Assembly (NCBI GenBank): GCA_965601925.1
Contig: OZ271854.1
Coordinates: 2,464,001 to 2,528,000, forward strand
Source: Alkalispirochaeta sp.
GTDB lineage: Bacteria > Spirochaetota > Spirochaetia > DSM-27196 > Alkalispirochaetaceae
Direction of reading: 5' to 3'
DNA: 64,000 nucleotides
The notes below the pieces were generated by a model that worked only from the letters and a program-made list of their open reading frames with translations, did not search any database and was not told the origin of the DNA. The translations under genes and the position numbers were made by a program. The first letter of the stretch is position 1. Each line of letters begins with the position of its first letter. Of the stretch, positions 12,071 to 29,486 are shown one piece after another.

Positions 12071-13126
12071 CTATTTCTCCGCCTTGGGCAGCGTTATCGT
12101 CACGCCCGCGCTATGGTCATGCGACTCGAAGGTGCCGCCGTGCAGCGCGACGACCAATCTGGCGTGCTCGTCCTCGATATTGGTGTGCGACGGCCCGTTC
12201 GATGTCCCACCCGCGTTGTCGTTGGTAACCTTGATTGCGTAGTTCTCGCCGTAATCATCGACTCTAACGGTCACGGTGCGGTGCTGCGGTGCCGGCTCTC
12301 CCGATCTCCTCTCGATTGCGTGTTGCAGGGTGTTCAGGAGCACTTTGTTGATGAGATCGGCATCGACGGCGACCACGGCACAATCCGCGTTAATCGCCGC
12401 CTCTATCGAGGTAGTCGAGTGCGCGTGCTCGGACGCCTTGTTCTGGATGGCGCTGCGAACGAGGGGCACGATGTCGACGGCGCGACGATACACCGCATGG
12501 GTGCCCGATTCGAGCGCGCGAATATCCCGTAATATGGCTACAAAATCACGCGCCTTCATCGACCGCTCGCGAAGAGTTCGCACCAAAGGCGCAAGACCGT
12601 GGGCGTCGTGCCCGTCCAATTTACGGTGGAGCAGATCGGAGATTCCCACGATCGGAGCGAGAATGTTTGCAAGTTCATGCGTAATCGCCCGCTCATGGTG
12701 TACCCAGTGCGTGACGTCGTTCCCGCCCCCGTTTCCCGACGTCCGTGTGGTGCGTCGTCGTCGCGCGGCAAGCTCCGAGCCGATCCGCTCCAGCAACTCC
12801 GGAGCATCGATCGACCGCCGTAGCACGCCGTGAATACCGTCATGCACCGCGTTGAGCCCGGCCTTGTCCCACCCGTTGTCGCGCGTAAGCAGGACAACGG
12901 TATCGGGCGATGAACCGGCGAGACGTGCCCCCCACTGCGTCCCGTCCCCGTCCGGCAGCGTTTCGTGCACGATAACGACGCTGATTTTCAGCGCCTGCAA
13001 TACTTCGTCGGCGCGCTCCAAGCTTTCAACGCCGAAGGCCGCATATTCATCACCCTTTATCGCCTCCACGAGCGACTCTCTCGTCGGCGAATCGGGATCT
13101 ATGATCAATATGTTACATGCCGTCAT
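12071..13126 (-). CDS. Pseudo-receiver + HisKA + degenerate HATPase protein (possible phosphotransferase)
   Basis: REC-like N-terminus lacking the phospho-Asp (VVIVHET); H-box THELANILAPI; N/G boxes eroded (LNTLQHAI, VTNDNAGG, no GxGLG). Confidence 0.7.
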   Translation of the reverse strand: MTACNILIIDPDSPTRESLVEAIKGDEYAAFGVESLERADEVLQALKISVVIVHETLPDGDGTQWGARLAGSSPDTVVLLTRDNGWDKAGLNAVHDGIHGVLRRSIDAPELLERIGSELAARRRRTTRTSGNGGGNDVTHWVHHERAITHELANILAPIVGISDLLHRKLDGHDAHGLAPLVRTLRERSMKARDFVAILRDIRALESGTHAVYRRAVDIVPLVRSAIQNKASEHAHSTTSIEAAINADCAVVAVDADLINKVLLNTLQHAIERRSGEPAPQHRTVTVRVDDYGENYAIKVTNDNAGGTSNGPSHTNIEDEHARLVVALHGGTFESHDHSAGVTITLPKAEK

Positions 13127-13548
13127 TCAAACAACTCCGCCAATTTTGTTATAAGTTCATCGATATCGAGTGGTTTGGGGACGATACCCGCTATGCCTTC
13201 CTGCAGTAGTTTTTGGGCCTCTATCGAGTACGGTAGTGCGGTCACCAACAGCACGGGGGTACATATACCGGCTTTTCGCAACGTGCGATATACCGTTGTC
13301 CCGTCGACATTCGGCATGTTGAGGTCCAAGAGAATAGCATCGACCGAGTCATGCTCGGGATAGTCGATGCAATCCCGGCCGCTGGTGAACTCGATCGTCC
13401 TATACTCATAAAGACGAAGAATGCTCGCGATAGTGCTATGTACGGCGACGTCGTCGTCTACGATCATTATAGTCTGTCGAGCGTCTCCGTGCTTAGTGAG
13501 GCGCACATCGTGCGGGCGTCTCATATCGTCAGTGTTTGTTCTTCTCAT
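13123..13548 (-). CDS. Single-domain response regulator
   Basis: IMIVDDD, LLDLNMPNVDG, LVTA and PKPL: intact receiver residues. Confidence 0.85.
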   Translation of the reverse strand: MRRTNTDDMRRPHDVRLTKHGDARQTIMIVDDDVAVHSTIASILRLYEYRTIEFTSGRDCIDYPEHDSVDAILLDLNMPNVDGTTVYRTLRKAGICTPVLLVTALPYSIEAQKLLQEGIAGIVPKPLDIDELITKLAELFE

Positions 13549-15299
13549 ACGCCGCTCCCGGAGAGGTAACCTACGGTCTCATGGATTGGAATCGGTTTTG
13601 AATAATGGTATCCCTGTGCGAGATCGCAACCGAGATCCCGCAAAGCGGTCTTTTGACTCGCCGTCTCGACACCTTCGGCCACGGTACCGATACCAAGTTT
13701 CTGCGCCATCGATATGATGGTCGAAACGATCGTTTCGACTCGTGAATTGACGTGCATGGTACTCACGAACTCACGATCGACCTTGATGAGATCAAACCCG
13801 AATTGCACGAGATAAGACATCGACGAATAACCGGTGCCGAAATCGTCTATCGCTACCTTCACCCCGATATCTTTGAGGCGCTGCAAGGTTCGGATTGTGC
13901 GGTCGGAGTTCGATATGAACGTACTCTCGGTGATTTCCACCACGACATTATCATGATTCTTCAGTTTGTCCATGATTTTTCCGACGAGGTTTGCCGAATC
14001 CGACGAGCACTGCAAATGCATCGGCGATACGTTGAACGATAGATGAAAGTCCGCCGGCTTAAACGATCCAAGCGTGTCTTGTAGTCGTGCGATTGCCTCA
14101 ACGATCCACTCCGTGACCGGTATAATGAGACGACTCTGCTCCAAGACCGGAACGAAGATGTTCGGTGGAACATCTCCGAGTTCCTCGTCGTTCCATCGTA
14201 GCAGCACTTCCCCGCCGTAAGGAGCGTCGTCGACCAAACGATGATACGGTTGCACCACAAGATCCAGCGCATTGTTCGATACCGCCTTTCTCAAGCGGCT
14301 TTCCAATACGGCGTTTTTGCGAACCACGCGCTTCTTTTCCGATTGAAAGAACTGATATCCGGCTCCGCCTTGCTGCTGTTGTGTATATAACGCCGTGATT
14401 GCCCGGTCATACATCATCTGCGTTGTCGTACCGTCCATGGGAAACAGAGCGATTCCGGCGCTCAGGCTTATCCGGGAGTAGCGCAACGCATCCGATTCTC
14501 GTTCAACGGCGAGAATTCTGTTGACCTTGTCGACGACGATGTCAATTTCCTCGGCGGCGCGTAACTCCATTACTAGTGCCAGTTCGCCCGGTCCAATGTG
14601 CGCCAACGTATCTCGCTCAAACAGCTCGCCGCGCAATCGCGCCGACAGCGAGTGCAACATCGCGTCGACGCGACACGCCCCTTCGGCGATCACGATCGCC
14701 GGTAGGTTATCCACGCCGATTGCGATAAGTGCGACGTGTCCCCCCTGTACCCGTTGGCGAACGATCGCCTCCTCCAGCGTCTCAACCAACGCAGTGCGGT
14801 TGGGTAGTTCCGTCACGGCGTCGCATACACTCAAAGGACGCTCGTGACCGGCCGCCCGCGGCTCGATGTCCTCACGCGAAAGACGAGCAAGTTTCAATGC
14901 GAGACGGCGGTACTCCAGTACACGGCGAAGCGAGAGGCGAAACCGCTCAATGTGGAACGGCTTCGCTAAACAGTCGAAGGCGCCGCACTTCAAGACATTA
15001 CCCAAGCATTCCCCGCTTGCATCATCGACCGTCGCAATGACTTGCGGGCGGGAATGGACCCTATTCGCGCTCGTGACGATGGTGTCGACCGACGAATCGT
15101 CGCCCGCGAGATCGGCAAACACTACATCGATCGTATCGTGTTCGAGGTGACGAATCGCGGCCAGCGGTCCCGGCGCGGTGATCACCTGACAATCGATTTC
15201 CGTGACGATTTTCTGAAAAAACGAGTGCGTCTCCTCGTCTTCGCCCACCACTAATAAGCGAATCTGATCGCGCGTCTGATTGGGTTGTTCTGTTCTCAT
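13545..15299 (-). CDS. REC-GGDEF(degenerate)-EAL protein, probable c-di-GMP phosphodiesterase
   Basis: REC (VFAD, AKPF); GGDEF site reads GPGEL; EAL residues intact: QP, EVLLRW, FNVS, EITES, DDFGTGYSS, IKVD, AEGVET, QGY. Confidence 0.9.
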   Translation of the reverse strand: MRTEQPNQTRDQIRLLVVGEDEETHSFFQKIVTEIDCQVITAPGPLAAIRHLEHDTIDVVFADLAGDDSSVDTIVTSANRVHSRPQVIATVDDASGECLGNVLKCGAFDCLAKPFHIERFRLSLRRVLEYRRLALKLARLSREDIEPRAAGHERPLSVCDAVTELPNRTALVETLEEAIVRQRVQGGHVALIAIGVDNLPAIVIAEGACRVDAMLHSLSARLRGELFERDTLAHIGPGELALVMELRAAEEIDIVVDKVNRILAVERESDALRYSRISLSAGIALFPMDGTTTQMMYDRAITALYTQQQQGGAGYQFFQSEKKRVVRKNAVLESRLRKAVSNNALDLVVQPYHRLVDDAPYGGEVLLRWNDEELGDVPPNIFVPVLEQSRLIIPVTEWIVEAIARLQDTLGSFKPADFHLSFNVSPMHLQCSSDSANLVGKIMDKLKNHDNVVVEITESTFISNSDRTIRTLQRLKDIGVKVAIDDFGTGYSSMSYLVQFGFDLIKVDREFVSTMHVNSRVETIVSTIISMAQKLGIGTVAEGVETASQKTALRDLGCDLAQGYHYSKPIPIHETVGYLSGSGV

Positions 15300-15315
15300 C
15301 GTTAATTAGAAGCGA

Positions 15316-15331
15316 AGCAATATACATGCCA
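15316..15331 (-). promoter_or_regulatory. sigma54 -24/-12 promoter for the leftward EAL operon
   Basis: Minus strand reads TGGCATGTATATTGCT (GG-N10-GC), 16 bp upstream of ATG 15299. Confidence 0.75.
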
Positions 15332-15446
15332 TGGATCTACAAGTGACCCAAAAAGACGATTATCGGGACATCGCCGGTGCAGAGCTCGAGTTTACCGGTT
15401 TTGTCGTACGCGTGCTTCGTGCCGAGAGTGGCCCGGGCGGCGCGAT

Positions 15447-15498
15447 TGTTTCATGTGTGTTTCACATATGAAACAGATTCTGTTGCAATCCTGCAACA
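15447..15498. promoter_or_regulatory. Tandem palindromes, putative enhancer (UAS) for a sigma54 activator
   Basis: TGTTTCA-CATA-TGAAACA 15458-15475 and TGTTGCA-ATCC-TGCAACA 15481-15498, plus a half-site TGTTTCA 15447-15453. Confidence 0.7.
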
Positions 15499-15622: not shown

Positions 15623-15639
15623 TTGGCATCGAAATTGCT
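15623..15639 (+). promoter_or_regulatory. sigma54 -24/-12 promoter for the che operon
   Basis: TTGGCATCGAAATTGCT (GG-N10-GC), 14 bp upstream of ATG 15654. Confidence 0.75.
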
Positions 15640-15653
15640 TGATAACAATCGGC

Positions 15654-18020
15654 ATGAAAAACCAATTCGCGGAAGACAATAAGAAACTCGAGTACGACGG
15701 ATCGGGTCAGGAAGCGAACCGGAACGGGACGACGGATGCGTCGCCCGCGGCGAGTAGTGAGTCGCAGACCCATACCGGCGATCGTTCCGACGAGGGTTCG
15801 ACCGGCACATGGGAAGCTACTCTGGTAGAGATCGACGACCTCATGGTTCTGAATACCTTCCTGCAGGAGTGTACGGATCATCTCGAGAACATCGAGGAAA
15901 AGATCATCCGTCTCGAGCAGAAGAACGATACCGAGTTGGTCGATGAGATCTTCCGCTCCATGCACACGATCAAAGGCACGTCCGGATTCTTCGGCTTCCA
16001 ATCGATCATGCAGTTGAGTCATGGATTGGAGACGATCCTCACCGACCTACGAAACGACTCCCGGACGATGTCGCCGACGCTCGGCGATCTGCTCTTGGAG
16101 GGGTCCGATCACATCCGGAAGATGATAGACGACATCAGATCGGCCGTTACCGGGCGAGATCAAGACGACCTTCCCTTTTCCATTCCCGAGGCTACCAAGG
16201 ACATCTCGGCACTGCTTGAGAAGGTAACATCGTCCGGTTCTGAAGAGCTGGCCGCCTCAGATCGCGATTCCGACGCGAATCGCGTCGTGGTCGAGCTCAC
16301 ATCCGAGGAGATGAGCGAGAGCTTTCAATCCGAGACGCTTGATCTCCTGGCGCAGGTCGAGGCGCAGTTGTTGGAGCTGGAGAAGGGCCCGAACGACCGT
16401 AACATCGTCGACCGGATATTCCGCCATGTACACACGATAAAGGGAAACGCCGGGTTCCTCGGTTTCGATGCGATCGAGCGCGTCTGTGCGAATCTCGAAG
16501 ATGTGTTGGACAGTCTCCGAAATGATTCTCGTGCCGCGAGTCAAAAGATCATCACCGGTTTGCTGCGTACCGTAGACGCATTGCGCCACTCGGTAACCGG
16601 CATCGCCGCGCAGGACGACGACGCTCCCGGAGACGGTTGTCAGTTCTCATTGGAGGACCAGTGTAAACCTCTCGGAGAGATTCTTGTCGAACTCGGGCTC
16701 GTGGCGGAGGAGGCGGTCGACGAAGCGCTGGACGAGCAAAAACGTCGGCTGGGCGAGATTCTCGTATCGAAAGGGTGCCTCTCGGAAGAGGGCCTTGGTC
16801 GCGCGCTCGAACAACAGCAGAAACCCGGCGGTACCGACCGGTTGGTCTCCAGCCGGAAAGACGTGCGGGTGAATGTGGAGAAGCTGGATCGCTTGTTCGA
16901 TCTGATGGGGGAGTTGATTACCGCTCAGGCGATGGTCGTCCAGAATCCCGATCTTGAAGGGCTCGATCTGCAACGCTTCAGCAGTGCGGCGAACTACATG
17001 GGCAAAATCACTCGGCAAATGCAAGAGATCACGATGTCCGTTCGTATGATCCCGTTGGAGGGAATGTTCAACAAGGTGCGCCGCGTCGTACGCGATTTGT
17101 CGCGCCGCATAGAACGGCCCATCACGCTGACCGATTCGGGTGGCGATACCGAGATGGATCGTAACGTTATCGAAGCGCTGTCGGATCCGTTGGTGCATAT
17201 CATCCGCAACGCCGTGGACCACGGGATCGAGCCGCCTGAGGGACGGAAGGCCGCCGGTAAAGCGGCTGAAGGACATATCGACCTTAGTGCGCGTTACGAG
17301 GGAAGCGAGATTTGGATAAGTGTGCGCGACGATGGACGCGGTCTCGACCGGGACAAGATCGTCGCACGCGCCGTAGAAAAGGGGTTGGCTACCGACTCGG
17401 AGGCGCAATCGCTGTCCGACTCCGCGGTGTGGCAGTTCATCTTCCACCCCGGTTTCTCCACGGCTGAGCAAGTATCGGACGTTTCCGGACGCGGTGTCGG
17501 TATGGACGTCGTGAGACGAAACATTGAGCAGCTGCGAGGCAAGATCGATGTGCTGACGACACCGGGAACCGGTACCGAGATCGTTCTTAAGATACCGCTG
17601 ACGTTGGCAATCATAGACGGCGTAATCACGAGGGTCGGCAATATCCTCTACGCGATTCCGCTCATCGATATACGCGAGTTCCATCAAGTGCTCCCCGGTC
17701 AAATCGTCGCCTCCACGTCTGCGGGAGAGGTGCTCCGTTTGAGGGAAAACGTTATTCCGATCGTACGACTCAGGGAGTTCTTTAAACGTTTGCAGGTAGA
17801 GGATCACCAGGGAAAGAGTGTTTTTGTCGTCGTACAGTCCGGTATCGAGCGGGCGGCGCTTTTGGTGGACGAGATCGTGGGGTACCACCAAATCGTCGTG
17901 AAGTCTCTCCCCGAGTACATGGGACACATGAACGGTTTGAGCGGTTGCAGTGTCCTGGGCAACGGAGACGTGAGTCTCATCATCGACACGAACGCGATAG
18001 TGAAGGGACGAGCGGCGTAG
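15654..18020 (+). CDS. cheA: Chemotaxis histidine kinase CheA with two Hpt domains and a tandem MshEN-like motif
   Basis: IFRSMHTIKG and IFRHVHTIKG; PLGEILVELG...RLGEILVSKG; VRVNVEKLDRL; HIIRNAVDHGIE; DDGRG; SGRGVGMDVV; C-terminal CheW-like P5. Start codon uncertain. Confidence 0.95.
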   Translation: MKNQFAEDNKKLEYDGSGQEANRNGTTDASPAASSESQTHTGDRSDEGSTGTWEATLVEIDDLMVLNTFLQECTDHLENIEEKIIRLEQKNDTELVDEIFRSMHTIKGTSGFFGFQSIMQLSHGLETILTDLRNDSRTMSPTLGDLLLEGSDHIRKMIDDIRSAVTGRDQDDLPFSIPEATKDISALLEKVTSSGSEELAASDRDSDANRVVVELTSEEMSESFQSETLDLLAQVEAQLLELEKGPNDRNIVDRIFRHVHTIKGNAGFLGFDAIERVCANLEDVLDSLRNDSRAASQKIITGLLRTVDALRHSVTGIAAQDDDAPGDGCQFSLEDQCKPLGEILVELGLVAEEAVDEALDEQKRRLGEILVSKGCLSEEGLGRALEQQQKPGGTDRLVSSRKDVRVNVEKLDRLFDLMGELITAQAMVVQNPDLEGLDLQRFSSAANYMGKITRQMQEITMSVRMIPLEGMFNKVRRVVRDLSRRIERPITLTDSGGDTEMDRNVIEALSDPLVHIIRNAVDHGIEPPEGRKAAGKAAEGHIDLSARYEGSEIWISVRDDGRGLDRDKIVARAVEKGLATDSEAQSLSDSAVWQFIFHPGFSTAEQVSDVSGRGVGMDVVRRNIEQLRGKIDVLTTPGTGTEIVLKIPLTLAIIDGVITRVGNILYAIPLIDIREFHQVLPGQIVASTSAGEVLRLRENVIPIVRLREFFKRLQVEDHQGKSVFVVVQSGIERAALLVDEIVGYHQIVVKSLPEYMGHMNGLSGCSVLGNGDVSLIIDTNAIVKGRAA

Positions 18021-18065
18021 CCGGTCGTGGATAGCAGAAGCGATACGAAAAAGAGGAGCGAGCGG

Positions 18066-18587
18066 ATGGCCAATACGATGCAAGAGAACGATTTCGTCGA
18101 CGAGCTGTGGGCGGAAGATGATGAGGATACGAAGGCCGGGGCGTCCAAGTATCTCTTGTTTTATCTCGGCGACGAGTTGTACGGCGTGAACATCATCAAT
18201 GTGACCGAGATTATCGAAATGCAACGCATTACGCCGGTTCCCGACATGCCGAACTACATCAGAGGGGTGATCAATCTCCGCGGGAAGGTCATTCCCGTGA
18301 TGGATTTGCGCCTGCGATTTCGCATGTCGGAGCGAGAGTACGACGACCGTACCTGCATCGTGGTAACCAGCATCGACAAATCGTCCCTCGGACTCATCGT
18401 CGACACCGTCGCCGAAGTCCACGATATCCATCCCGACAACGTGGAACACGCGTCGAGGATGCCGTCGTCGGAGGGCGAACAGTACGTAGAGGGTATCGGA
18501 AAGCTGGACGATCGAGTTTCGGTGTTAATCGACGCGCGCAAAATCCTCCGCGGAGAGGCGTTGCAGGCCGTCCAGGACCAGCTCTGA
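18066..18587 (+). CDS. cheW: Chemotaxis adaptor CheW
   Basis: YLLFYL, ITPVPDMPNYIRGVINLRGKVIPVMDLR, GLIVDTV. Confidence 0.93.
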   Translation: MANTMQENDFVDELWAEDDEDTKAGASKYLLFYLGDELYGVNIINVTEIIEMQRITPVPDMPNYIRGVINLRGKVIPVMDLRLRFRMSEREYDDRTCIVVTSIDKSSLGLIVDTVAEVHDIHPDNVEHASRMPSSEGEQYVEGIGKLDDRVSVLIDARKILRGEALQAVQDQL

Positions 18588-18625: not shown

Positions 18626-19558
18626 ATGACGGCAGCGCGCTCTGATCTCGTGGCGACAAACGGACTCCTTACCATCTCGCATGGAGAGTTCGCACGCGTG
18701 CGCGAGCTTATCTACCGACGGTTCGGTATCCACCTGTCGGAACAAAAGAAGACGCTCGTCCAGGGGCGGCTCAACAAACACTTACGGTCCAAGGGCTATC
18801 GGGCGTTTGGAGACTATCTGGACGACCTCGAGCGCGACGGCTCCGTGGAACGCCTCCTTTCGCTGGTGGATTGCATCTCGACAAACCACTCGTTCTTCTT
18901 TCGTGAGGCGGGTCACTTTCAATATCTTCAGGAGACGGTGTTCCCTCAGCTGCAGCGGGATGGGGTTGCGCCGACGGATCTCGCGATCTGGTGTGCGGGT
19001 GCCGCCGGCGGACAGGAACCCTACACCCTGGCGATGGTCCTCCGCGAGTACTTCGGCGACTCCGTCACGTGGCGTAGGCCGGCGATTTTGGCGACCGACA
19101 TCTCCGTGAGCGCCCTCGAGCAGGCCAAGGCGGCCACATATCCGGCGGAGGTCGTTAAGGCAACTCCGGTGCGGTATCGCAAATACTTCGTCAACGACGG
19201 GTCGGGCGGCGTCCGCGTGACCGACGACATACGCAGGATGATTTTGTTCAAGCGGCTCAATCTCATCCAGCCGCGCTTCCCCTTCAAAGGAAAGTTCCAC
19301 GTCGTCTTCTGTCGCAACGTGATGATCTATTTCGACACTCCGACGAAGATGGAACTTGCGGCTCGGTTCAGTCGGTACACGACCCCGAACGGTTATCTGA
19401 TCATCGGCCACTCCGAAAGCCTCGGCCGAGAGCCTGCGGGATATCGATACGTTCAACCCACGGTATACCGACGATACCGCGAGGGCGATGGAAGCTTGTC
19501 GGGAACCAAGGACCGCGCCGTAGGCGCGAAGCATACAGAGAACGAACACGCGAGGTAA
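18626..19558 (+). CDS. cheR: Chemotaxis methyltransferase CheR
   Basis: STNHSFFFRE, IWCAGAAGGQEPYT, ATDIS, VVFCRNVMIYFD, GHSE. Confidence 0.93.
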   Translation: MTAARSDLVATNGLLTISHGEFARVRELIYRRFGIHLSEQKKTLVQGRLNKHLRSKGYRAFGDYLDDLERDGSVERLLSLVDCISTNHSFFFREAGHFQYLQETVFPQLQRDGVAPTDLAIWCAGAAGGQEPYTLAMVLREYFGDSVTWRRPAILATDISVSALEQAKAATYPAEVVKATPVRYRKYFVNDGSGGVRVTDDIRRMILFKRLNLIQPRFPFKGKFHVVFCRNVMIYFDTPTKMELAARFSRYTTPNGYLIIGHSESLGREPAGYRYVQPTVYRRYREGDGSLSGTKDRAVGAKHTENEHAR

Positions 19559-19674: not shown

Positions 19675-21783
19675 ATGGCACGGCAAATGAAAATGAGTAC
19701 AAAGATAACGGGAGGATTTCTCCTGGTATTGGCCCTTCTGCTCGTCGTCGGCACCCTCGCCGGTGTCTTCTTGACGCGAGCCTCGTCCGACTTCGTCCAG
19801 TATCGCGAGTGGTCGCAGGAGTCGATGCTCATGGCGAATACGCTGGAGCACATGTTGATGGTGCGTACCTCCGTGAGGAACTTCATCAACTCAGGCGCGC
19901 AACGCGACATCGACGCGGTTGAGGCGGGGCTCACCGAGGTAGACAGCTACATCCTCCGGGCCCAAGAGATGATTCACTCGGGGGAGCGTGCCGAGATGGT
20001 CGCCGAACTCCACGAGGATATCGAGTCGTATCGCGCGGCATTTCACGAAATCGTCGGGCATCGCCAGAGCAGAGACGTGCTGGTGGAACGGTTGAACGTC
20101 TTGGGACCGGAGATCGGTGATGAAATGTCGGACATTCTCGTCTCGGCGCGCGACGAGAACGACCTCGACACCGTCTACATCGCGAGTCTCGCGACGCGCG
20201 ACCTCCTCTTTGCACGATTGTACGTCGTCAAGTTTTTTGAGGACGGGTTGGAAAGTAACGTCGAGCGCGTTCGCGACTATTTCGGAAGCATGAACGGCCA
20301 CATCGATAACTTGAATGCGCGATTGACCAACGCCGGGACGCGCGCTCGACTCAATAGGATCGTAGCGGACATTGACGAGTACATCGTCGACTTCGACCAG
20401 ATCGTTAACCATACCCTTGCAAACACCGAGATTATCGATACTCAGCTCGACGTCATCGGACCGCACGTCGCGGAGTTGGCCTCGACGGTGGTGCAGGCCA
20501 TCCAGACGGATCAAGGGGTGCTGGGAGACCAGCTGCAACGCAACAACCAGACCGCAGTCGTACTGGCGATCATTATCTCCGCGGCGGCCCTGGGAATCGG
20601 TATCTTTTTCTCCATATTCATTACGCGCAGCATCTTGGGGCAGTTGGGCGCCGATCCGGCGGTCATCGAAGATATCACCGAGCGTGTAGCCCGCGGCGAG
20701 CTCGACGTCAAGATCGACGAAGATCGGCTGCAAGGCGTCTATCTCTCGGTGGGAGAAATGGTTCGATCGCTGAACGACGTACTCGGTCAGGTGAACGAGT
20801 CGGTGACGCAGCTCACCGCCGGCGCGGCCCAGGTGGCAGACTCCAGCCAGTCGCTATCCCAGGGCGCTACCGAGCAGGCGAGCTCCCTCGAAGAGATATC
20901 CGCGTCGCTCAACGAGGTAAATAGCCAATCGACGCAAAATGCCGAGACGGCCTCGGAGGCGAACGCCGTCGCCAAGACCGCATTCCAGAACGCCGACAGC
21001 GGCAACCGACAGATGAAACAATTGGTCGAATCGATGACGCTCATCAACGAGAGCTCCGAGCAGATCACCAAAGTGGTGAAGGTCATCGACGACATCGCCT
21101 TCCAGATCAACCTCCTGGCACTCAACGCCAACGTCGAGGCGGCGCGGGCCGGCAAGTACGGTAAGGGCTTTGCCGTGGTCGCCGAAGAGGTGCGCAACCT
21201 CGCCGCGCGCAGCGCCGAAGCGGCCAAGGAGACCGCCACGATGGTGGAGGAGACGACCAAGAACATCGAGGAGGGCAACAAGGCCGCCGAGTTGACCTCT
21301 ACCCAGTTGGAGGAGATCGTCGCCGGGGTCACCAAGGTCGCCGATTTCTTGGAAGAGATCGCCACGGCGAGTAAGGAGCAGGCCCAAGGGATCGAACAGA
21401 TCAATCAGGGGCTCGTGCAGATCGATCAGGTGACGCAGTCCAATACCGCCAGCGCGGAAGAGAGTGCCGCCGCCGCCGAGGAACTCGCGTCGCAGTCGCA
21501 GCAGGTGCGCCACCTCGTCGGGCGGTTCCGACTCGCCGGGAGACAGATTGCGGGACCGCCCGCGATGTTGACCGACGGGCGGCACGAACGTGTGGCCATC
21601 GGCACCGAGGCCGCGGGACTGGGAGCCGGCGTGGACGCCGGGCACTATGCCGAGCCCTACGGCGGATACCGCGACGATCGCGAAACCAGGGACCTTGTTG
21701 GAACCGCGACGACCGTAGAGCCGAACGGTCAACGTCCGAAGGATGTGATCCAGTTGGACGACGACGACTTCGGATCATTCTAA
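19675..21783 (+). CDS. Methyl-accepting chemotaxis protein with a large periplasmic sensor and C-terminal pentapeptide
   Basis: Two TMs flanking a ~260 aa helical domain; [20 protein letters not shown] hairpin tip; ends DFGSF. Confidence 0.95.
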
Positions 21784-21797
21784 TCGACGAATGAGCC

Positions 21798-21833
21798 GGC
21801 GGGCTCCTCACCCGAAGCGGTGAGGAGCCCGCC
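21798..21833. repeat. Perfect 15-bp stem-loop downstream of the MCP gene
   Basis: GGCGGGCTCCTCACC-cgaagc-GGTGAGGAGCCCGCC; no U-tract. Confidence 0.75.
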
Positions 21834-22026
21834 CGGTTCCGGATACCGATTCGCGCGTGCCCAATACGTAGCGTGCCGACGCAAGAAGACGCGGTTCGGG
21901 AACGACGTAGTACGTATCATCGTGCCGTGGGGTAGCGCTCCTTCGGCGATTACATCGATGATCGTGAACGCAACGGCGCCGGCGGTCATGTGTTGACGCC
22001 GGTGTGTTAATGCTGGTGAGTCGAAT

Positions 22027-23070
22027 ATGGCAATAAGAGTACTCGTTGTAGACGATTCCGCACTTGTTCGAAGAATATTGCGCACCGAGCTCGATCGATA
22101 CGCGGATATCGAAGTAATCGCCGCCGTTCCCGACGTATATGTCGCGCGCGACCGCATTGTGCTCGACAAGCCCGATGTCGTGACTCTCGATATCGAGATG
22201 CCGCGTATGGATGGGGTCGAGTTTCTGCGGAGGCTGATGCCGCAGTATCCGTTGCCGGTGATTATCGTCTCCGCATTGGCGACCACGCACGCCGACCTCA
22301 CGTTTCAAGCCCTCGAGTACGGCGCCGTCGATTTCGTCACCAAGCCGTCGGCGCGCTTGGGCAGTGCGCTCAAGGATACCGTCGAGGAGTTGGTCGGGAA
22401 GATACGGGTCGCCGCGAAAGTCGACGTGGCGCACCATCGGAACCGCACCGACGGATACCGGCCGAAGCCGCGCATCGCCACCGCGCTTTCGCAAAGCACC
22501 GACAAGATCATTGCCATCGGAGCCTCCACCGGCGGCACCATCGCACTCGAGCATATCATTCGAGAGTTGCCGGCCGACACCCCGGGCATCGTCGTGACGC
22601 AGCACATGCCGCCGGTGTTTACGAAGCAGTTCTCCGAGCGACTCGATCGAGTCTCGGCGATGGAGGTCAAGGAGGCGGAGAGCGGCGATCGGGTCTTGCG
22701 CGGTCGGGTGTTGATAGCCCCCGGCGAACAACACCTCGAAGTCGTGCGATCGGGTGGTGTCTATCTCGCTCGATGTACCCAGGGTGAGAAGGTAAATAGA
22801 CATCGTCCCTCGGTGAGCGTCCTGTTTCGATCGATGGCAAAATACGTCGGGGCAAACGCAATCGGGGTCATGCTGACCGGTATGGGCGCCGACGGCGCCG
22901 ATGAGATGGTACTGATGCGAGAGGCCGGTGCGCGGACGCTCGCACAGGATGAGGCGACATCGGTGGTATTCGGCATGCCCAAAGAGGCGTATGAACGCGG
23001 TGGCGCGGAGCGGTTGGTTCCGCTTCCCGACATTGCCGGGGCGATCGTGGAGGCACAACGAGCACTATGA
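22027..23070 (+). CDS. cheB: Chemotaxis response regulator methylesterase CheB
   Basis: REC TLDIEMP; IGASTGG, QHMP, HRPSV, LTGMGADG, SVVFGMP. Confidence 0.95.
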   Translation: MAIRVLVVDDSALVRRILRTELDRYADIEVIAAVPDVYVARDRIVLDKPDVVTLDIEMPRMDGVEFLRRLMPQYPLPVIIVSALATTHADLTFQALEYGAVDFVTKPSARLGSALKDTVEELVGKIRVAAKVDVAHHRNRTDGYRPKPRIATALSQSTDKIIAIGASTGGTIALEHIIRELPADTPGIVVTQHMPPVFTKQFSERLDRVSAMEVKEAESGDRVLRGRVLIAPGEQHLEVVRSGGVYLARCTQGEKVNRHRPSVSVLFRSMAKYVGANAIGVMLTGMGADGADEMVLMREAGARTLAQDEATSVVFGMPKEAYERGGAERLVPLPDIAGAIVEAQRAL

Positions 23071-23552
23071 GACGTATCGTAAATGTGGGTATCGGCGAGT
23101 ACGCCATAGCGAACGGGGCCGCAGACGAGATAAAAACGTATGGTCTCGGTTCGTGCATCGCCCTGATCGTCTACGATTGGCGACGCAAAATGGGCGCACT
23201 CATACATATCGCCTATCCCGAGGCGTCGGTGAACCCGACGCGGGCCCGGGACCAGCCGGCGTATTTTGCCGATACGGGAATACCTCTGCTTATGAACGAC
23301 TTTGTGTCGCGCAACAAACCGGACCGTCGCGATCTTACACTTAAGATTGCCGGTGGGGCGACCATTATGGACGAGGAGGGACGCTTTAACATCGGCAAAC
23401 GAAACGCCCTGGCGGTGAAGCGGCAGCTCTGGCGACTGGGCTACGGTCTGAAGAGCGAAGACATCGGGGGAAACATCAGCCGTACTATCTCACTGTCCGT
23501 GGGAACGGGAACGACCTTGATAAGCAACGGTGCGAAGCGGTGGGAGTTATGA
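23067..23552 (+). CDS. cheD: Chemoreceptor glutamine deamidase CheD
   Basis: TYGLGSCIAL, HI, FADTGI, KIAGGA, IGKRN, EDIGG. Confidence 0.9.
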   Translation: MRRIVNVGIGEYAIANGAADEIKTYGLGSCIALIVYDWRRKMGALIHIAYPEASVNPTRARDQPAYFADTGIPLLMNDFVSRNKPDRRDLTLKIAGGATIMDEEGRFNIGKRNALAVKRQLWRLGYGLKSEDIGGNISRTISLSVGTGTTLISNGAKRWEL

Positions 23553-23583
23553 CGTATTAGCTCGGAACCACGAGGAACAATTC

Positions 23584-23952
23584 ATGGACTATAATACGAT
23601 ATTGATAGTGGATGATTCGAAAACTTCGCGCCTCATCGTAAGACGGTGCCTGGAGATGGCCGGTTTTGCCGAATCCCGATTTTTAGAAGCGGGCGACGGT
23701 ACGATGGCGCTGGACGTGGTGTACGATGAGGGGGTGGATTTGATCGTTACCGATCTGAAAATGCCGCGTATGGACGGACGGACGCTGGTACGGCAACTCC
23801 GATCGCGTGCCGAAACGGCGGACATTCCGATCGTAGTCGTATCCAGTTTGGCCGGGGAGACCGACGAGGACCCGATCGTCGGCAAGAACATACTGGCTGC
23901 GATTCAAAAACCCGTATCACCGACGAAGTTCATGGAAGCCTTGGGAGTGTAG
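23584..23952 (+). CDS. CheY-like single-domain response regulator
   Basis: ILIVDDS, VTDLKMPRMDG, VVSS, QKP. Confidence 0.88.
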   Translation: MDYNTILIVDDSKTSRLIVRRCLEMAGFAESRFLEAGDGTMALDVVYDEGVDLIVTDLKMPRMDGRTLVRQLRSRAETADIPIVVVSSLAGETDEDPIVGKNILAAIQKPVSPTKFMEALGV

Positions 23953-23954
23953 CG

Positions 23955-24404
23955 ATGGAGATTGCACAGGCGGTCAATGAGGCCGTGGTAGAGACATTTT
24001 CCGAGATGGCGTTTATGGACGCCGAGCCGATACGCGACTTCGCAAGTGCTCCTCCGTTCGGGCAGATCGTTGGAGTCGAGTTTCTTCATCCTCTCCAAGG
24101 ACACTTGATTTTGCACCTTACGACGACCGCTAAGCAGATGGTGATAGAGAACATACACGGCCTCGATTGGCGTTCTTTGACTCGTCAAGAGGTTGACGAC
24201 TGTCTTATGGAACTCGTTAACATCATGGCGGGCAATTTCCTTCTCCGTATGGAGACGGGCGAGCGTCGGTACGCCTTGTCGCTCCCACAGGTCTGGTACG
24301 ACGAATCGGACATCATCGACTGTGGACCACTCGATGACTTCTGTTTTACGGTGAACGACGAAGCGGCGAAAGTGTCGCTCGCATTCGTGCCCGCAGAGGG
24401 CTAA
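23955..24404 (+). CDS. cheX: CheX-family phosphatase
   Basis: ETFSEM...DCLMELVNIMAGN (ExxN motif), LSLP; lies directly after a cheY-like gene. Confidence 0.7.
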   Translation: MEIAQAVNEAVVETFSEMAFMDAEPIRDFASAPPFGQIVGVEFLHPLQGHLILHLTTTAKQMVIENIHGLDWRSLTRQEVDDCLMELVNIMAGNFLLRMETGERRYALSLPQVWYDESDIIDCGPLDDFCFTVNDEAAKVSLAFVPAEG

Positions 24405-24407: not shown

Positions 24408-25709
24408 ATGATACGTGTCGAGTCGAGCTTCAGACAGATCATCCTCATCGGCGGCACCGAATCCACCCGTAGTCATGTGCGAGGCGTGTTTTCACAGCTC
24501 GGCGTTCCGGTACTTACCGACGATACGTGGGATTTGGACGCGTATGATAGCGCTACGCACGTCTTTGACGTCGCCCTCGTCATGCGCAACCGACAAACCT
24601 CCTTCGCCTCGCTGGTTCGAGCACTCTTAAACGCCAATCCTCAAGTTGCCGTCGTGTGTATCGACGATCGTGTCGATCTTGAGAGGGCCTTGGACGCGAT
24701 GCGCGCCGGTGCACAGGATTACTTCACGAACGATATCGAAGATAGGGACCTCGTTTCCCGTGTTGAGCTGGCGGTACAGCGGCAACAGCTCTCTATGACC
24801 GCCGAGCGAACGGCCCGCGAAGAGCTGCGGTCATACGTCGCCAAGACGCAACTCGTGGACTGGAAGAGCATGTACGGCTCAAAAGACGTCACGCAAGCGG
24901 ATATCATGATCGAGTTATTGGCGCGAACTATGAATCAAGAGGGAGGCTTCATGTGGCTCGACCTCCTGCGCGACGGTCAGACCGAGATCGACGAGTCCAA
25001 TGTGTCGGTCCCGAAAGAGATTATGGAGCTGGCGTTGGTGAGCGCCGAAACGCAGAAAAAGGTGTTTGAAACCGTTGCATTTCTCTCGGAGATCGACAAG
25101 ATCCCGCTGGAGAGCGAATCATTTTCCGGGCCGATGTTGATTGAGCGTATTGCGCGAAACATCGACGAGAAGTTATTCGCGTTATGCCCCTCAAAACGGT
25201 TGAATTACTCCGTCACTCCGTACGGCGCACCGATTGCATACACCGTACGCATCGACTTCGGCCAACTATCCCGCATCCTCGATGAGTTGGTTATCAACGC
25301 CGTGAAGTTCACACCCGAAGGAGGCGCCGTTCGCGCCTTTTTCGACATCACCAACGAGCCGTATGCGGGAGAAGTGCTGACCCTCCATATCCAGAACTCG
25401 GCGCGACCGTTGAAGAAGTTCAGCGAAGGAGTGGAAAATGCGGTCGGAATTCCTTACGAACTCAGTGAACGAGTATTTGAGTTGTTCTATACCATAGACC
25501 CCTATCCTTCGTATCTCGACACCGAGGAGTGGCGCGACGGGACCGGGCTGTATATCGCACGCAAGTTAATGAAGCGTTTCGGCGGCTGGATCGAAGCGGC
25601 AAACGTACGTTTGCATACCCACGACGCCATCGAAACGATGGTGGACGTCCGAGTTCGCCTATCAATACAACAGGAGGATGCAGATGAGCCAGAAGGTTCT
25701 CATAGTTGA
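24408..25709 (+). CDS. Pseudo-receiver + HATPase_c protein with no recognisable H-box
   Basis: REC-like fold ('ALDAMRAGAQDYF') without Asp/Lys; ELVINAVKF, GIP..SERVFELFY, GTGLYIARKLM; no His in the DHp region. Confidence 0.7.
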   Translation: MIRVESSFRQIILIGGTESTRSHVRGVFSQLGVPVLTDDTWDLDAYDSATHVFDVALVMRNRQTSFASLVRALLNANPQVAVVCIDDRVDLERALDAMRAGAQDYFTNDIEDRDLVSRVELAVQRQQLSMTAERTAREELRSYVAKTQLVDWKSMYGSKDVTQADIMIELLARTMNQEGGFMWLDLLRDGQTEIDESNVSVPKEIMELALVSAETQKKVFETVAFLSEIDKIPLESESFSGPMLIERIARNIDEKLFALCPSKRLNYSVTPYGAPIAYTVRIDFGQLSRILDELVINAVKFTPEGGAVRAFFDITNEPYAGEVLTLHIQNSARPLKKFSEGVENAVGIPYELSERVFELFYTIDPYPSYLDTEEWRDGTGLYIARKLMKRFGGWIEAANVRLHTHDAIETMVDVRVRLSIQQEDADEPEGSHS

Positions 25710-26037
25710 CGACTCGGCGACCATGCGGCAGATGATTGCCATTATACTCAAAGGTGCGGGATACGAAACGCTGGCCGTTTCGGACGGAGCTGCCGCGATT
25801 GAAGCGTTCGACGATTCGATCGATCTGGTTGTAACGGATTACAACATGCCTAAGATGAACGGGGTGGAACTCGTCGAGGCGATTCGATCCGGCGGCGTCA
25901 ATAGCGACGTTGTGATTCTCATGGCAACGACCGAGTCCGAAGCCACGCAGTCTCAGGGTCTCGCCGTTAATAAGTGGCTGCAGAAACCGTTTGCGAAGCA
26001 GGCGCTGGTCGATGCGATAGAGGAGGTGCTCGGGTAA
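25684..26037 (+). CDS. cheY: CheY-like response regulator
   Basis: VLIVDDSATMR, VTDYNMPKMNG, ATTES, QKPF; AGGAGG RBS. Confidence 0.85.
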   Translation: MSQKVLIVDDSATMRQMIAIILKGAGYETLAVSDGAAAIEAFDDSIDLVVTDYNMPKMNGVELVEAIRSGGVNSDVVILMATTESEATQSQGLAVNKWLQKPFAKQALVDAIEEVLG

Positions 26038-26170
26038 CCTATGGAGCGCTTTCGTGTAACCGCGTCGTCGAGCATCGGGACGCCCGTCACGGCATATCGA
26101 GGGGACGCGGCTCCAACGGCACGGGCGTTCAGCATTGTAGCTCGCAGGTGCGACGACAGGAGGAAGCGCG

Positions 26171-27607
26171 GTGTCGGATACGAACATCCGTGGGGTTCGG
26201 ACATCTGAGAGTCTGTCTCGTCTTATCGTGGTCGACGACGACGAGTGGATTCGCGACTATTTGGTACAGCTTCTGAGCGATGAAGGTTACCAGGTCGATA
26301 GCTGCAGCAGCGGCGAGGAGGGTATCGAGCGCATTCGTCGCTTCGAGTACGACCTCGTACTAACGGATGTAAAGATGGACAAGATCGACGGGATTGCGTT
26401 GCTCGAGATGGCAAAGCAAACCGAAGATCCTCCCGAGGTACTCGTGGTGTCGGGCTTTGCCGCGATAGAAGACGCGGTGAGGGCCATCAAAAAGGGCGCA
26501 TGCGATTACTTAGTCAAGCCTCTCGATGGGGACCGTGTGATAAACGCCGTCCGTCTGGCCACCGAACGGCGCAGCCTCAAGCGCGAAAATCGACGGCTTC
26601 GCATGCGGATGCACAACTCATACGGCGATGATCGGCTGGTCGTGGTAAGCCCGGCGATGCAAAAGACGATGGTGATCGTCGATGCTGTCAGCAACGCCGA
26701 TACGGCGGTCCTCATCGAGGGCGATAGCGGTACCGGAAAAGAGATCATCGCCAAATCGATACACCGGCGCAGCGCTCGCGCCAACGGTCCGTTTATCCCG
26801 ATCAATTGCGGGGCACTGCCCGAATCGTTACTCGAGAGTGAGCTATTCGGCTACGACAAGGGAGCGTTTACCGGCGCGACACAAGCCAAAGTCGGGCTCT
26901 TTGAGGCGGCTCACGGAGGCACGATATTACTCGACGAAATCGGCGAGCTGCCGCTCAATTTACAAGCGTCGCTCCTACGTGTGCTCCAGGAGAGTGAGAT
27001 ACGGAGGATCGGCGGAACGAAGAATCTCGATATCGACGTGCGAATCATCGCCTCGACGAACAGAAATCTCAGTCGGATGGTACGAGACGGAAGTTTCCGA
27101 GAGGACCTCTATTATCGTTTGAGAGTCGTTCCGATTCGTGTCCCCCCTCTTCGAGAGCGGCCCGAGGATATCATTCCCCTCACCATGTACTTCCTCGACC
27201 ATTACGGCCGCCTGCTGGGTAAGGAGTTCACGGGGCTCGACGAGGAGGTCGTGCGATTTCTCGGGCAAAGGGAGTGGCGCGGTAACGTCCGGGAGCTCGA
27301 GAATCTTATCCACGCCGCAGTAACGCTCTATCCGCCCGGTAATCTCACCCTGGGGCAGATTATCGCCATCGTCGAGATGAATCGGGATACCCACGCGCCG
27401 GCTACCCCCCAAGCTGCCCCCGAGGACGAGGATCAGGAGGCGACCACACTCCTCAGAGATCGCGACGATGCGGAACGCAAATCAATCGTCGACGCTTTGG
27501 AGCGGTGCCGCGGTCACCAAGGCCATGCGGCCGAACTGTTGGGAATTAGTCGTACTTCGTTGTGGCGAAAAATGAAAAAATACCGCATAAACGTTCTTAC
27601 CCATTGA
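26171..27607 (+). CDS. NtrC/AtoC-family sigma54-dependent response regulator
   Basis: REC (LTDVKM); GDSGTGKE, ESELFG, GAFTGA, LDEIGE, FREDLYYRL, WRGNVREL; Fis-type HTH AAELLGISRTSLWRKM. Confidence 0.95.
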   Translation: MSDTNIRGVRTSESLSRLIVVDDDEWIRDYLVQLLSDEGYQVDSCSSGEEGIERIRRFEYDLVLTDVKMDKIDGIALLEMAKQTEDPPEVLVVSGFAAIEDAVRAIKKGACDYLVKPLDGDRVINAVRLATERRSLKRENRRLRMRMHNSYGDDRLVVVSPAMQKTMVIVDAVSNADTAVLIEGDSGTGKEIIAKSIHRRSARANGPFIPINCGALPESLLESELFGYDKGAFTGATQAKVGLFEAAHGGTILLDEIGELPLNLQASLLRVLQESEIRRIGGTKNLDIDVRIIASTNRNLSRMVRDGSFREDLYYRLRVVPIRVPPLRERPEDIIPLTMYFLDHYGRLLGKEFTGLDEEVVRFLGQREWRGNVRELENLIHAAVTLYPPGNLTLGQIIAIVEMNRDTHAPATPQAAPEDEDQEATTLLRDRDDAERKSIVDALERCRGHQGHAAELLGISRTSLWRKMKKYRINVLTH

Positions 27608-27663
27608 TAATGCGTCGATTCCCGCCGATCATCGTTGTATATTAACGGTACCAGTACAGTACT

Positions 27664-27675
27664 TTGTATATACAA
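27664..27675. promoter_or_regulatory. Palindrome TTGTATATACAA, candidate GntR/HutC-type operator
   Basis: Perfect 12-bp palindrome in an AT-rich intergenic region just before the TTG at 27690. Confidence 0.45.
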
Positions 27676-27689
27676 GGGGGATAACGCAC

Positions 27690-29486
27690 TTGAGGCGTTA
27701 TTGGGCGATCGAGGACTCGTGGATCGCCAAAGTATATCCAACGGCGTCAACGCCGCAAAAGCAGCGAGTCTTCGCATTCTCGATGCTTCTCGTCGTCGGA
27801 ATCGTTGCGTTGGTCGGCTATCTGGTCGTCAATGTGTTCGTCGGCGATTACTACTTCGCCGCTGAAAATGCAATTATCATAGTTCTGTCAGTTGTTGCGC
27901 TTTTCCTTCTGAGACGCGGACGGTATACCGAGGCCCTGTACGTCGCGGTCTTCTTCGGCGGCGTCGTCGTCGAGCTGTTTATCGTCTTTGCGGGTGCGTT
28001 CTCGTGGAGTCAGACCATGGCGTTCGGTGGGGAGACGCTCCCGCTTACCGCTACCATGTATCTGCTCATCATCGGCATACTCTCCACGGAACGAAGAATG
28101 GTGTATCTCTCGATCGGCGCATTCACTCTGATCGTCACCGCCGGTACGGCGTTCATCGACGAGTCGACGACCCATCTGGCAATCTTCTCGGCGACCAACG
28201 CATTTCTTTTTCTGCTCATCGTGTCCACGGTGACATTTCTTCTTTTTCACCTGCAGCAGCATCTCGTGACGTCGATACGAGAGAAAGAGGTGCTTACCGA
28301 GCGTCTGGAGACCGAAAAGCTTGCGGCGGAGCGGGCCAACGGAGCAAAGTCGATATTCCTGGCGAAGATGAGCCACGATTTGCGGACGCCCATTAGCAAC
28401 GTTCTCGGAATCAGCGAGTTGCTGTTACGGACTACGGACGACGGCGAAACGCGGAGATTCGTGAAGAGCATTCAGCATTCCGGCAAAACACTCCTACGAC
28501 TCGTCGAAGACATTCTGGATCTCTCGAAGGTAGAGGCCGAAGAGGTGTTGTTCGTTCGAGAAGAGTTCAATCTTTCGACCGTCATAAAAACCGTCGTGCG
28601 TTCGGTAACCACGGCAATCAGGGAGAAGGGTCTATCTCTCGAAGCGCATATCGATATCGACGACGCCCTACGTGTCGCGGGGGACCCCGCCCGACTGGAG
28701 CAAACCATTACCAATGTTCTGGTGAACGCCGTGAAGTACACCGATTCCGGAGTTATCGCGGTGCGCGCTTCGATCGACACGCGCAGCGATCCATATCACT
28801 GCACGATCACGATCGCCGACACGGGCATAGGAATCCCGCCGGAGTTACTCGACTCGATCTTCGAACCGTTCTCTCAGGGCGCACCCGAGTACTACGGCGC
28901 CCGACGCGGGGTCGGTCTCGGTCTGTCAATTGTGAAGCACGTTTTGAATCATATGGGTGGAGACGTCGCCGTCCACAGTGAGGTCGGCGCGGGTACGACC
29001 GTGACGATGCGTTTTCCGATGGATGCTGCCGACGGTCTCGTCGAGCCCGACCCCGCCGATGAAATCGAGGAAGGTATCACGCGATCCACACAGGCGTACC
29101 GTGTTCTGATTGCCGACGACGATCCGGTGAATCGCGAGCTGATCATCCACACGCTCCAGCATCTCGGCCATTCGGTGACTGCGTGCGAAAACGGTTCCGA
29201 AGCGGTCGAACAGTTCGAAACAGACGCGTTTGATATGGTTATTCTCGATATTCACATGCCGGTATTAGACGGTATTGATGCAACGGCGAGCCTACGATCG
29301 CTGGAGAACTTTCGGCAGAACCCGGTTCCGATCCTCGGCTTGACGGCATCCGCGATGCCGCAGGAGATCGAATGTTTCCTCGCGGCGGGAATGGACAGAG
29401 TGTTGACTAAGCCGTTCACGATAGACGAGTTGTCCCAAGCGATCGCCGCGTTTGCGATTCACGATACTCGCGCATTCGATACCTAA
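27690..29486 (+). CDS. Membrane-bound hybrid sensor histidine kinase (HisKA-HATPase-REC)
   Basis: ~6 TMs; MSHDLRTP, NVLVNAVKYT, DTGIGI, GVGLGL; REC ILDIHMP...TKPF. Confidence 0.93.
   Translation: MRRYWAIEDSWIAKVYPTASTPQKQRVFAFSMLLVVGIVALVGYLVVNVFVGDYYFAAENAIIIVLSVVALFLLRRGRYTEALYVAVFFGGVVVELFIVFAGAFSWSQTMAFGGETLPLTATMYLLIIGILSTERRMVYLSIGAFTLIVTAGTAFIDESTTHLAIFSATNAFLFLLIVSTVTFLLFHLQQHLVTSIREKEVLTERLETEKLAAERANGAKSIFLAKMSHDLRTPISNVLGISELLLRTTDDGETRRFVKSIQHSGKTLLRLVEDILDLSKVEAEEVLFVREEFNLSTVIKTVVRSVTTAIREKGLSLEAHIDIDDALRVAGDPARLEQTITNVLVNAVKYTDSGVIAVRASIDTRSDPYHCTITIADTGIGIPPELLDSIFEPFSQGAPEYYGARRGVGLGLSIVKHVLNHMGGDVAVHSEVGAGTTVTMRFPMDAADGLVEPDPADEIEEGITRSTQAYRVLIADDDPVNRELIIHTLQHLGHSVTACENGSEAVEQFETDAFDMVILDIHMPVLDGIDATASLRSLENFRQNPVPILGLTASAMPQEIECFLAAGMDRVLTKPFTIDELSQAIAAFAIHDTRAFDT

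Follow-up and report, generated by a model that had tools for sequence, protein, structure and literature searches.

The window analysed here is a stretch of 64,000 nucleotides from Alkalispirochaeta sp. (GenBank assembly GCA_965601925.1, contig OZ271854.1, positions 2,464,001 to 2,528,000 of the forward strand), and the subject of the analysis is a locus of 15 genes at window positions 12,071 to 29,486. In this locus, a left arm with a predicted phosphodiesterase of cyclic di-GMP (c-di-GMP) diverges from a right arm with chemosensory (che) genes and an NtrC-type activator of sigma54-dependent transcription. Two divergent operons on one intergenic control region had been proposed in an initial annotation, and this anatomy was borne out: all 15 genes were found again at the same positions and on the same strands, and each arm has a sigma54 box in the gap.

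Judged from comparative sequence analysis, the locus is a real, conserved regulatory module that is rare in its order. The explanation that fits best, and which is considered moderately probable as a whole, is a sigma54 expression module whose own activator drives both arms. The activator would bind two palindromes in the centre of the control region and switch on both arms together, by which an accessory chemosensory system and the predicted phosphodiesterase would be co-produced. Should the right arm be transcribed as a unit, it would also yield more activator, a positive feedback that is held with moderate confidence. Falling c-di-GMP, read by the MshEN motifs of the kinase CheA, would then tune the newly-made array, a step to which moderate confidence is also attached.

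The shared control region and its predicted activator

The divergent gap of 350 bp contains one outward-facing sigma54 box on each strand and, midway between them, two palindromes with the consensus TGTTKCA-N4-TGMAACA. Both copies are perfect in a 7-4-7 arrangement and lie about 125–165 bp from either box. A loose sigma54 pattern matched the window 41 times against 40.7 expected, which is chance level, and the support for the boxes therefore comes from comparison with relatives. The only two one-mismatch matches of the window both fall in the gap, where the boxes are near consensus, and they form the sole divergent pair among 91 pattern matches in the host genome, a single contig of 5.05 Mb. 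A sigma70 promoter pattern gave three matches against 9.1 expected, fewer than by chance.

A CheA search of 99 genomes of the order returned three close orthologs (56–64% identity) and 15 more distant genomes. The phosphodiesterase arm diverges from cheA in all three close orthologous loci, and the layout of box, palindromes and box, with the EAL gene leading off on one side and cheA, at times preceded by parA, on the other, is present in four relatives (G017, G034, G087 and G088; genomes carry G numbers and fetched loci L numbers). The arms that the initial annotation had treated as one locus are thus linked in relatives. In G088 the same arm, boxes and start of parA stand on a short contig that ends inside parA. 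All four orthologous loci carry both boxes, one of them a TGGT variant, and in each the palindrome occurs one to three times. A matrix of six sites from three relatives ranked the window sites first and second in the 5.05 Mb, and the exact consensus occurs in the host genome only at these sites. In G088, which was held out, two sites lie 23 bp apart between the two boxes, the same spacing as in the window.

The product of gene 26171 has the hallmarks of an NtrC-type sigma54 activator, namely a receiver (REC), an AAA+ domain with GAFTGA and a Fis-type helix-turn-helix, and RpoN is encoded in the genome. Orthologs at E<=1e-118 were found in four of the 99 genomes, the host included, and an additional copy in G034 is split by an N gap. 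The genomes with an activator ortholog are the same as those with an ortholog of the phosphodiesterase (4/4 searched). The recognition helix of the orthologs is LGISRTSLWRKMK or nearly so, and it differs from that of all 10 further full-length sigma54 activators of the host genome. A sample of 400 genomes of the phylum, in which only 3–4 candidates per genome were scored, contained two further activator homologs (G218 and G274), neither of them beside che genes in the fetched stretches; among the 3–4 candidates scored per genome, no EAL ortholog at E<=1e-85 was found in this sample. G218, which belongs to another family, has an identical recognition helix and, right after its activator gene, a site one base off palindrome 1, located 130 bp upstream of a sigma54 box whose downstream genes are unrelated. 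In G274 the helix is altered, and the 8.5 kb fetched contain no palindrome site. On these two sequences, the palindrome motif goes with the activator helix and not with the che genes.

There is strong reason to predict that the activator acts on the two central palindromes. The proposal of the initial annotation that the locus encodes the activator of its own control region is very likely right, given the conservation of palindrome and helix, and autoregulation is highly probable. Among the 45 best of 66 genome-wide sigma54 candidates, only the locus pair has the motif (24.2 bits; next best 9.3). Since the two locus promoters alone carry the motif in the host genome, the predicted regulon is, with strong confidence, the locus itself. 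Targets beyond it were sought in the host genome and among the relatives' single motif matches and were not found; of the 17 such matches fetched, none had a sigma54 box nearby. The transcriptional output suggested earlier thus stands in so far as the activator very likely acts on the shared region, but with no target found outside the locus, the output would be the locus itself.

Several points weigh against this reading. The matrix sites were chosen by eye with knowledge of the window motif, which makes the rank test partly circular. The relatives are kin rather than independent, and no P value is claimed for the conservation of the motif; the independent checks are the held-out G088 and G218, the latter a single case. 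Tandem perfect palindromes are not unique either, with 22 pairs genome-wide, mostly in repeats. Positive feedback presupposes that the right-arm transcript extends across 10.5 kb into the activator gene; this is assumed, with a strong hairpin located after the receptor (MCP) gene. No separate promoter was seen before the activator gene, which directly follows cheX in G034.

The hairpin itself (window ~21793–21837, between the receptor gene and cheB) is G+C-rich without a U tract and is possibly an RNA stability or attenuation element. The predicted sigma54 start sites of both arms, near 15305 and 15650, lie only ~4–6 bases before the likely start codons (15299–15331 and 15624–15654); cheA is without a Shine-Dalgarno-like sequence, and short leaders are also seen in L034 and L070. 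In relatives, a parA-family gene stands between the promoter and cheA (L033 3830–4600, L034 6100–6864, L054 1–790, L036 near 16400–16570); it is truncated in G034 and absent from the window. A resemblance of the first cheA-frame codons to parA was weak and was not relied on. G034 has two extra palindrome copies inside its activator gene, upstream of a further sigma54 box (L036 4589, 5012, 6189), and this box, located past the activator, precedes genes for a PAS/GAF hybrid kinase and a REC-HD protein that may be a second phosphodiesterase. Elsewhere in the host genome, a perfect-palindrome array of ~17 copies of a 27–29 bp unit occupies 267357–267812, and sigma54-like boxes at 3979774 and 4709130 precede two open reading frames (ORFs) resembling, by eye, sigma70-family factors, a hint of a sigma cascade.

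Phosphate donors, c-di-GMP and competing explanations

Receiver positions 14, 16 and 20 face the kinase. On helix 1 of the activator this surface is D/E14, W16 and Y20, and in CheY1 and CheB of the locus it is S14 and I20. W16 and an aromatic residue at 20 are shared by the phosphodiesterase receivers of all four relatives and the four activators with this region aligned, and in a receiver tree the activator and phosphodiesterase receivers group together (94/93). A shared surface unlike that of CheY and CheB weakly suggests that the ancestral donor to both proteins was the left-arm HisKA kinase and not CheA. Against this it must be said that the receiver clade falls short of the 95/80 support bar, and that the EAL receivers are 30–39% identical to the activator, no higher than the 33–38% to another activator. 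In the ancestral form, the left-arm kinase would have phosphorylated the activator and the phosphodiesterase, with the che operon as cargo of this two-component loop, an idea put forward only weakly. On this reading the che operon is more likely an output than an input.

The left-arm kinase gene of the host (12071) keeps its His but has lost ~15 residues including the F and G2 boxes. A database search with it returned only itself, and its orthologs were obtained by synteny: three of the four keep the N, F and G2 boxes (L033, L034, L070), and the copy in G034 (L036) is degenerate too and is followed by an intact kinase. From this comparison, 12071 is a decayed copy of the left-arm kinase, possibly retained as a His relay or phosphatase. 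A role of 12071 as a conserved, dedicated phosphotransferase of ChpT-like type was considered and rejected because three of four orthologs keep these boxes. The phospho-Asp is missing from the receivers of both the His-only (12071) and the His-less (24408) kinase. The initial annotation had made both pseudo-kinases parts of the circuit, a view that did not survive, as neither is conserved as such: 12071 is intact in three of four orthologs, and the 24408 family usually goes with F8-type CheA.

The initial annotation had also described the phosphodiesterase as REC-EAL. The catalytic motifs of EAL enzymes (EVLxR, N, E, DDFGTGYSS, K, E, Q) are present and the protein is predicted to be active, but it also has a GGDEF domain that is degenerate in the host (GPGEL) and in three aligned orthologs, and its receiver is degenerate (29.7 bits, cut-off 30.2, compared with 79–90 bits in three orthologs scanned). 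An intact GGDEF is missing from the locus, while 17 GG[DE]EF ORFs (and 16 other EAL-like ORFs) occur in the genome, so that the locus, as read from its genes, can lower c-di-GMP but cannot make it. The label of a self-contained circuit therefore does not hold for c-di-GMP.

With the left-arm kinase and the phosphodiesterase receiver decayed and the activator receiver intact, another donor is needed in the host. The phosphodiesterase, next to a kinase without its ATP lid, would be controlled by expression only, and the activator would be fed by the downstream hybrid kinase or by one CheA Hpt, perhaps with the His-only protein as a relay. The hybrid kinase (27690) has intact motifs but is not conserved in orthologous loci. 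A CheA Hpt is a possible donor, although direct signalling from CheA to the activator is judged unlikely.

Such signalling is central to a closed-loop switch, in which a CheA Hpt phosphorylates the activator, c-di-GMP sets CheA through MshEN, and the phosphodiesterase closes the loop to give bistable expression. In its favour, 115 of 120 homologs keep both Hpt His motifs; wherever CheA was seen in an orthologous locus its motifs are intact, which holds for no other kinase; and the stretch from cheX to the activator contains no further conserved kinase. There is also a precedent for CheA acting on an NtrC-like regulator in Che3/CrdA of Myxococcus; in the available part of that report, however, the true kinase is CrdS and CheA3 is a phosphatase (PMC3147164). 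The helix-1 surface of the activator, unlike those of CheY and CheB, argues mildly against phosphorylation by CheA, which the initial annotation had implied. Moreover, the tandem-Hpt CheA clade is also found without this activator in other genomes of the order with fetched loci, from which it follows that the second Hpt is not there for the activator. The closed loop is accordingly a rather doubtful alternative. A self-building array, whose tandem-Hpt CheA would read c-di-GMP through MshEN, with one Hpt serving CheY and CheB and the other the activator, and a bidirectional enhancer making the array, the activator and the ligand-removing phosphodiesterase, is a similarly unlikely form of the idea. 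If true, it would be a bistable cell-state switch and the first defined output for the 36H-receptor accessory class in spirochaetes.

It could also be argued that the module is eroding and rearranged: the promoters would be wired as described, but the left arm would have lost part of its signalling and the shared promoter would serve no working feedback circuit. Three receivers are degenerate on long branches, the left kinase has its deletion of ~15 aa, parA is lost, a foreign His-less kinase/cheY block is inserted, and a strong CheA match was found in only 2 of 16 genus members scored, both of a different subtype. However, every reading frame of the locus is open and no catalytic motif of EAL is lost; the palindromes are both perfect, the two boxes are near consensus, and branch lengths are ordinary for the activator and the core che genes, which makes this explanation improbable.

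The sigma54 module with its own activator would include sensing of c-di-GMP by CheA. The window CheA matches the MshEN model NF053729 with 50.3 bits (cut-off 38) and has both the two 24-residue motifs and the four-helix fold. Its structural model superposes on c-di-GMP-bound MshE (5HTL) with a root-mean-square deviation of 1.1–1.2 Å over 54 columns. Less favourable are the E value of the fold match (about 0.01, with a short query), a spacer of 2 residues instead of the canonical 5 in the host and 110 of 120 homologs, and the replacement of the first Arg by Pro. Taken together, sequence and model make c-di-GMP binding by CheA plausible and, in our estimate, probable. The CheA proposed earlier as a c-di-GMP sensor thus retains its MshEN match above cut-off, but the concept is not new, since fragment binding is already described in the available part of PMC5013675. 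MshEN is common in the order, with 16 of 18 CheAs scanned matching the model and 12 above cut-off. Two other accessory CheAs of the host (genome 3188346–3190571 and 3648422–3650581) also have MshEN-like linkers; a second 36H receptor is found at the 3.19-Mb locus, and no cheW, cheY or receptor was seen next to cheA at the 3.65-Mb locus.

Chemosensory class and gene content

CheA of the locus carries a His in each of its two Hpt domains and is without P2 and receiver. More than 90% of multi-Hpt CheAs have a receiver, so the window protein follows a minority pattern. A spirochaete CheA clade of this architecture, including MshEN, gave 243 matches, and the nearest CheA loci and proteins with a name belong to Spirochaetales/Spirochaetota. 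Members of the clade (L048, L049, L039, L042, L044) adjoin other regulators; loci in G003 and G005 have an unrelated sigma54 activator with its own box, and those of family f6 a HisKA_3 kinase with a LuxR-type regulator.

The chemoreceptor aligns without gaps to E. coli Tar over 272 aa and is therefore 36H, the receptor of F7 type (PMC9321776). Of ten receptors tested from clade loci, nine were also gapless to Tar and the tenth gave no alignment. The window receptor has two transmembrane segments, and its probable HBM-like sensor scores 25.9 bits, below cut-off (Atlas lead 0.94). The receptor ends in DFGSF, a C-terminal tether motif of the kind described in the available part of PMC7184735. 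In a kinase-core tree of 24 rows, the window CheA stands in a separate group (93/91) that includes neither F8-type nor F1/F2-type CheAs nor that of E. coli; this tree is sparse, with one long branch, E. coli CheA as the single F7 reference and no F4 reference. The locus has CheD, and its order A-W-R-M-B-D-Y-X differs from the F7 order YAW...R...B. In its mode of work it resembles an accessory F7 system, and it may belong to that class or to a new one. It is not F8, as the receptor is 36H and CheA falls outside the 97/97 clade of 34H-linked Aeromonas and Pseudomonas CheAs. F4 systems have a multi-Hpt CheA with three Hpt in all cases and the order B...R...WYA, as far as the available part of PMC10542144 goes; the window CheA has two Hpt and a different gene order. 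The F2 features (CheW:CheR fusion, extended dimerisation domain, AW:RXY order) are absent from the locus and present in a separate F2 locus at genome 4.28 Mb. The ACF/Tfp classes (CheA with C-terminal receiver, 40H receptor) do not fit a CheA without receiver and a 36H receptor. The host has four complete CheA genes, in the F2-type locus with a long CheW, in the window and in two others.

Residue 106 of CheY has a role in motor control, and CheY1 of the locus is without an aromatic residue at this position, which argues mildly against such control. With moderate confidence, the system is not the main flagellar pathway, and the separate F2 system upholds the role apart from flagellar chemotaxis that had been suggested initially. 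An ordinary second chemotaxis pathway that biases the motor under another activator or condition, with loosely-linked neighbours, is very improbable, for although the locus has a full che set with membrane receptor, CheX and CheD and 36H systems control motors in some bacteria (available part of PMC7184735), the host has a complete F2 system, CheY1 is without aromatic 106, four relatives keep the two arms together and the motif goes with this activator.

The His-less kinase 24408 belongs to a spirochaete family that is full length in 30 of 60 relatives and has no His in the DHp region in any of 18 aligned sequences; its receiver is intact in 17 relatives and degenerate in the host. In 14 of 20 fetched loci (L011–L030), the family precedes cheY and CheA, and the 12 of these CheAs that were tested all best match the F8-type CheA at 3.65 Mb of the host, a locus that is itself without the His-less kinase/cheY pair. 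It is therefore likely, from these matches, that the block has moved into the window operon, and it may still serve the F8-type system. A split kinase, in which 24408 phosphorylates the His-only 12071, was rejected, since none of the fetched orthologous loci contains the 24408 family, which precedes a different CheA in 14 of 20 loci. A segment W-x3-Y-x2-KD...NQ-x-GG-x2-W is invariant in the family. Its proteins may have an as yet undescribed accessory function in chemosensing, as a phosphatase or an ATP-dependent scaffold; no description of the family was found in the literature searched. On the far side of the left arm, an OpuAC-type ABC transporter of the glycine betaine family (window 8053–11932) converges on it. 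The features of the locus are listed in Table 1.

Table 1. Features of the locus, in window positions.
Feature	Position	Strand	Remarks
Degenerate REC-HisKA kinase, no HATPase match	12071..13126	-	His150 in HELAN present; ATP lid/G2 box deleted; receiver without Asp
Single-domain receiver, motif residues intact	13123..13548	-	Ortholog in L036
REC(degenerate)-GGDEF(degenerate)-EAL, predicted active c-di-GMP phosphodiesterase	13545..15299	-	EAL 210.9 bits
Left-arm sigma54 -24/-12 box	15317..15331	-	Matching box in 4/4 orthologous loci, one a TGGT variant
Predicted enhancer palindrome 1, TGTTTCA-N4-TGAAACA	15458..15475	no strand	Rank 1 genome-wide
Predicted enhancer palindrome 2, TGTTGCA-N4-TGCAACA	15481..15498	no strand	23 bp after palindrome 1; rank 2 genome-wide
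Right-arm sigma54 -24/-12 box	15624..15638	+	Found in 4/4 orthologous loci
CheA, Hpt-Hpt-MshEN-P3-P4-P5, no P2	15639..18020	+	Likely start ATG 15654
MshEN motifs of CheA	16668-16739 and 16746-16817	+	
CheW	18027..18587	+	Likely start 18066
CheR	18626..19558	+	
Membrane chemoreceptor (MCP), 36H class, probable HBM-like sensor, C-terminal DFGSF tether motif	19675..21783	+	
CheB	22027..23070	+	
CheD	23067..23552	+	
CheY1, conserved with tandem-Hpt CheA clade, no aromatic at position 106	23530..23952	+	Likely start 23584
CheX	23955..24404	+	
His-less REC-DHp-HATPase of spirochaete family, receiver degenerate here	24408..25709	+	Usually upstream of F8-type cheY-cheA
CheY2, partner gene of His-less kinase	25678..26037	+	
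NtrC-type sigma54 activator	26171..27607	+	Recognition helix 27539-27577; GAFTGA, Walker A and receiver intact
Membrane hybrid kinase HisKA-HATPase-REC, motifs intact	27690..29486	+	Not conserved in orthologous loci

Comparison with known systems

The best fold match of 24408 is LvrB of Leptospira (PDB 8VC9, E 1.7e-17), which has the same REC-DHp-CA architecture; identity is 15%, and unlike LvrB the 24408 family has no His in DHp (18/18). With the F7 class the locus shares a 36H receptor with pentapeptide tether, CheD and an accessory position beside a motility system, according to the available parts of PMC9321776 and PMC7184735. It differs from F7 in its tandem Hpt, missing P2, MshEN, CheX and gene order, and in the sparse tree its CheA clade did not join E. 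coli CheA.

The MshEN-CheA of Aeromonas veronii likewise carries MshEN just before the CheA dimerisation domain, and a fragment of it bound c-di-GMP with a Kd of 2.6 µM despite the loss of both arginines; control of the CheA kinase by c-di-GMP is shown only as this fragment binding (available part of PMC5013675). The Aeromonas protein is built as Hpt-P2-MshEN (PMC5013675, in part), whereas the window CheA is Hpt-Hpt-MshEN with a 2-residue spacer and 36H receptors. In the tree, Aeromonas CheA with the same motif groups with 34H/F8-type systems. In a survey of CheA architectures, the word MshEN is absent from the main text (PMC10542144).

Accessory che operons of Geobacter also have sigma54 boxes upstream, and the available part of that report describes no cognate activator, enhancer or divergent phosphodiesterase (PMC2577667). 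In Myxococcus xanthus, Che3-CrdS-CrdA similarly combines a chemosensory cluster with an NtrC-like sigma54 activator served by a HisKA-type kinase of its own, and the simplest reading of the left-arm kinase as a shared donor would by analogy parallel CrdS for CrdA. Che3 differs in that CheA3 is a hybrid with a receiver and there is no CheY; in the available part of PMC3147164, no phosphodiesterase, MshEN or shared bidirectional enhancer is described, and the targets of CrdA are stated as not yet known.

Elements already published include a sigma54 activator under chemosensory control (PMC3147164), che clusters preceded by sigma54 boxes (PMC2577667) and MshEN-CheA (PMC5013675), as the available parts of these reports attest. 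No description was found in the open-access literature of a che operon joined by a bidirectional enhancer to its own activator and to a phosphodiesterase. The locus also defines a spirochaete CheA clade with tandem Hpt and MshEN but neither P2 nor receiver. What accessory 36H/F7-type systems do is described as open in the available part of PMC7184735. With its named activator, 18-bp site, two promoters and phosphodiesterase, the locus makes the expression of the system and its c-di-GMP feedback testable with reporters and purified proteins. Its self-reinforcing wiring, as predicted and as kept in four related genomes, offers a testable lead on the role of spare chemosensory systems.

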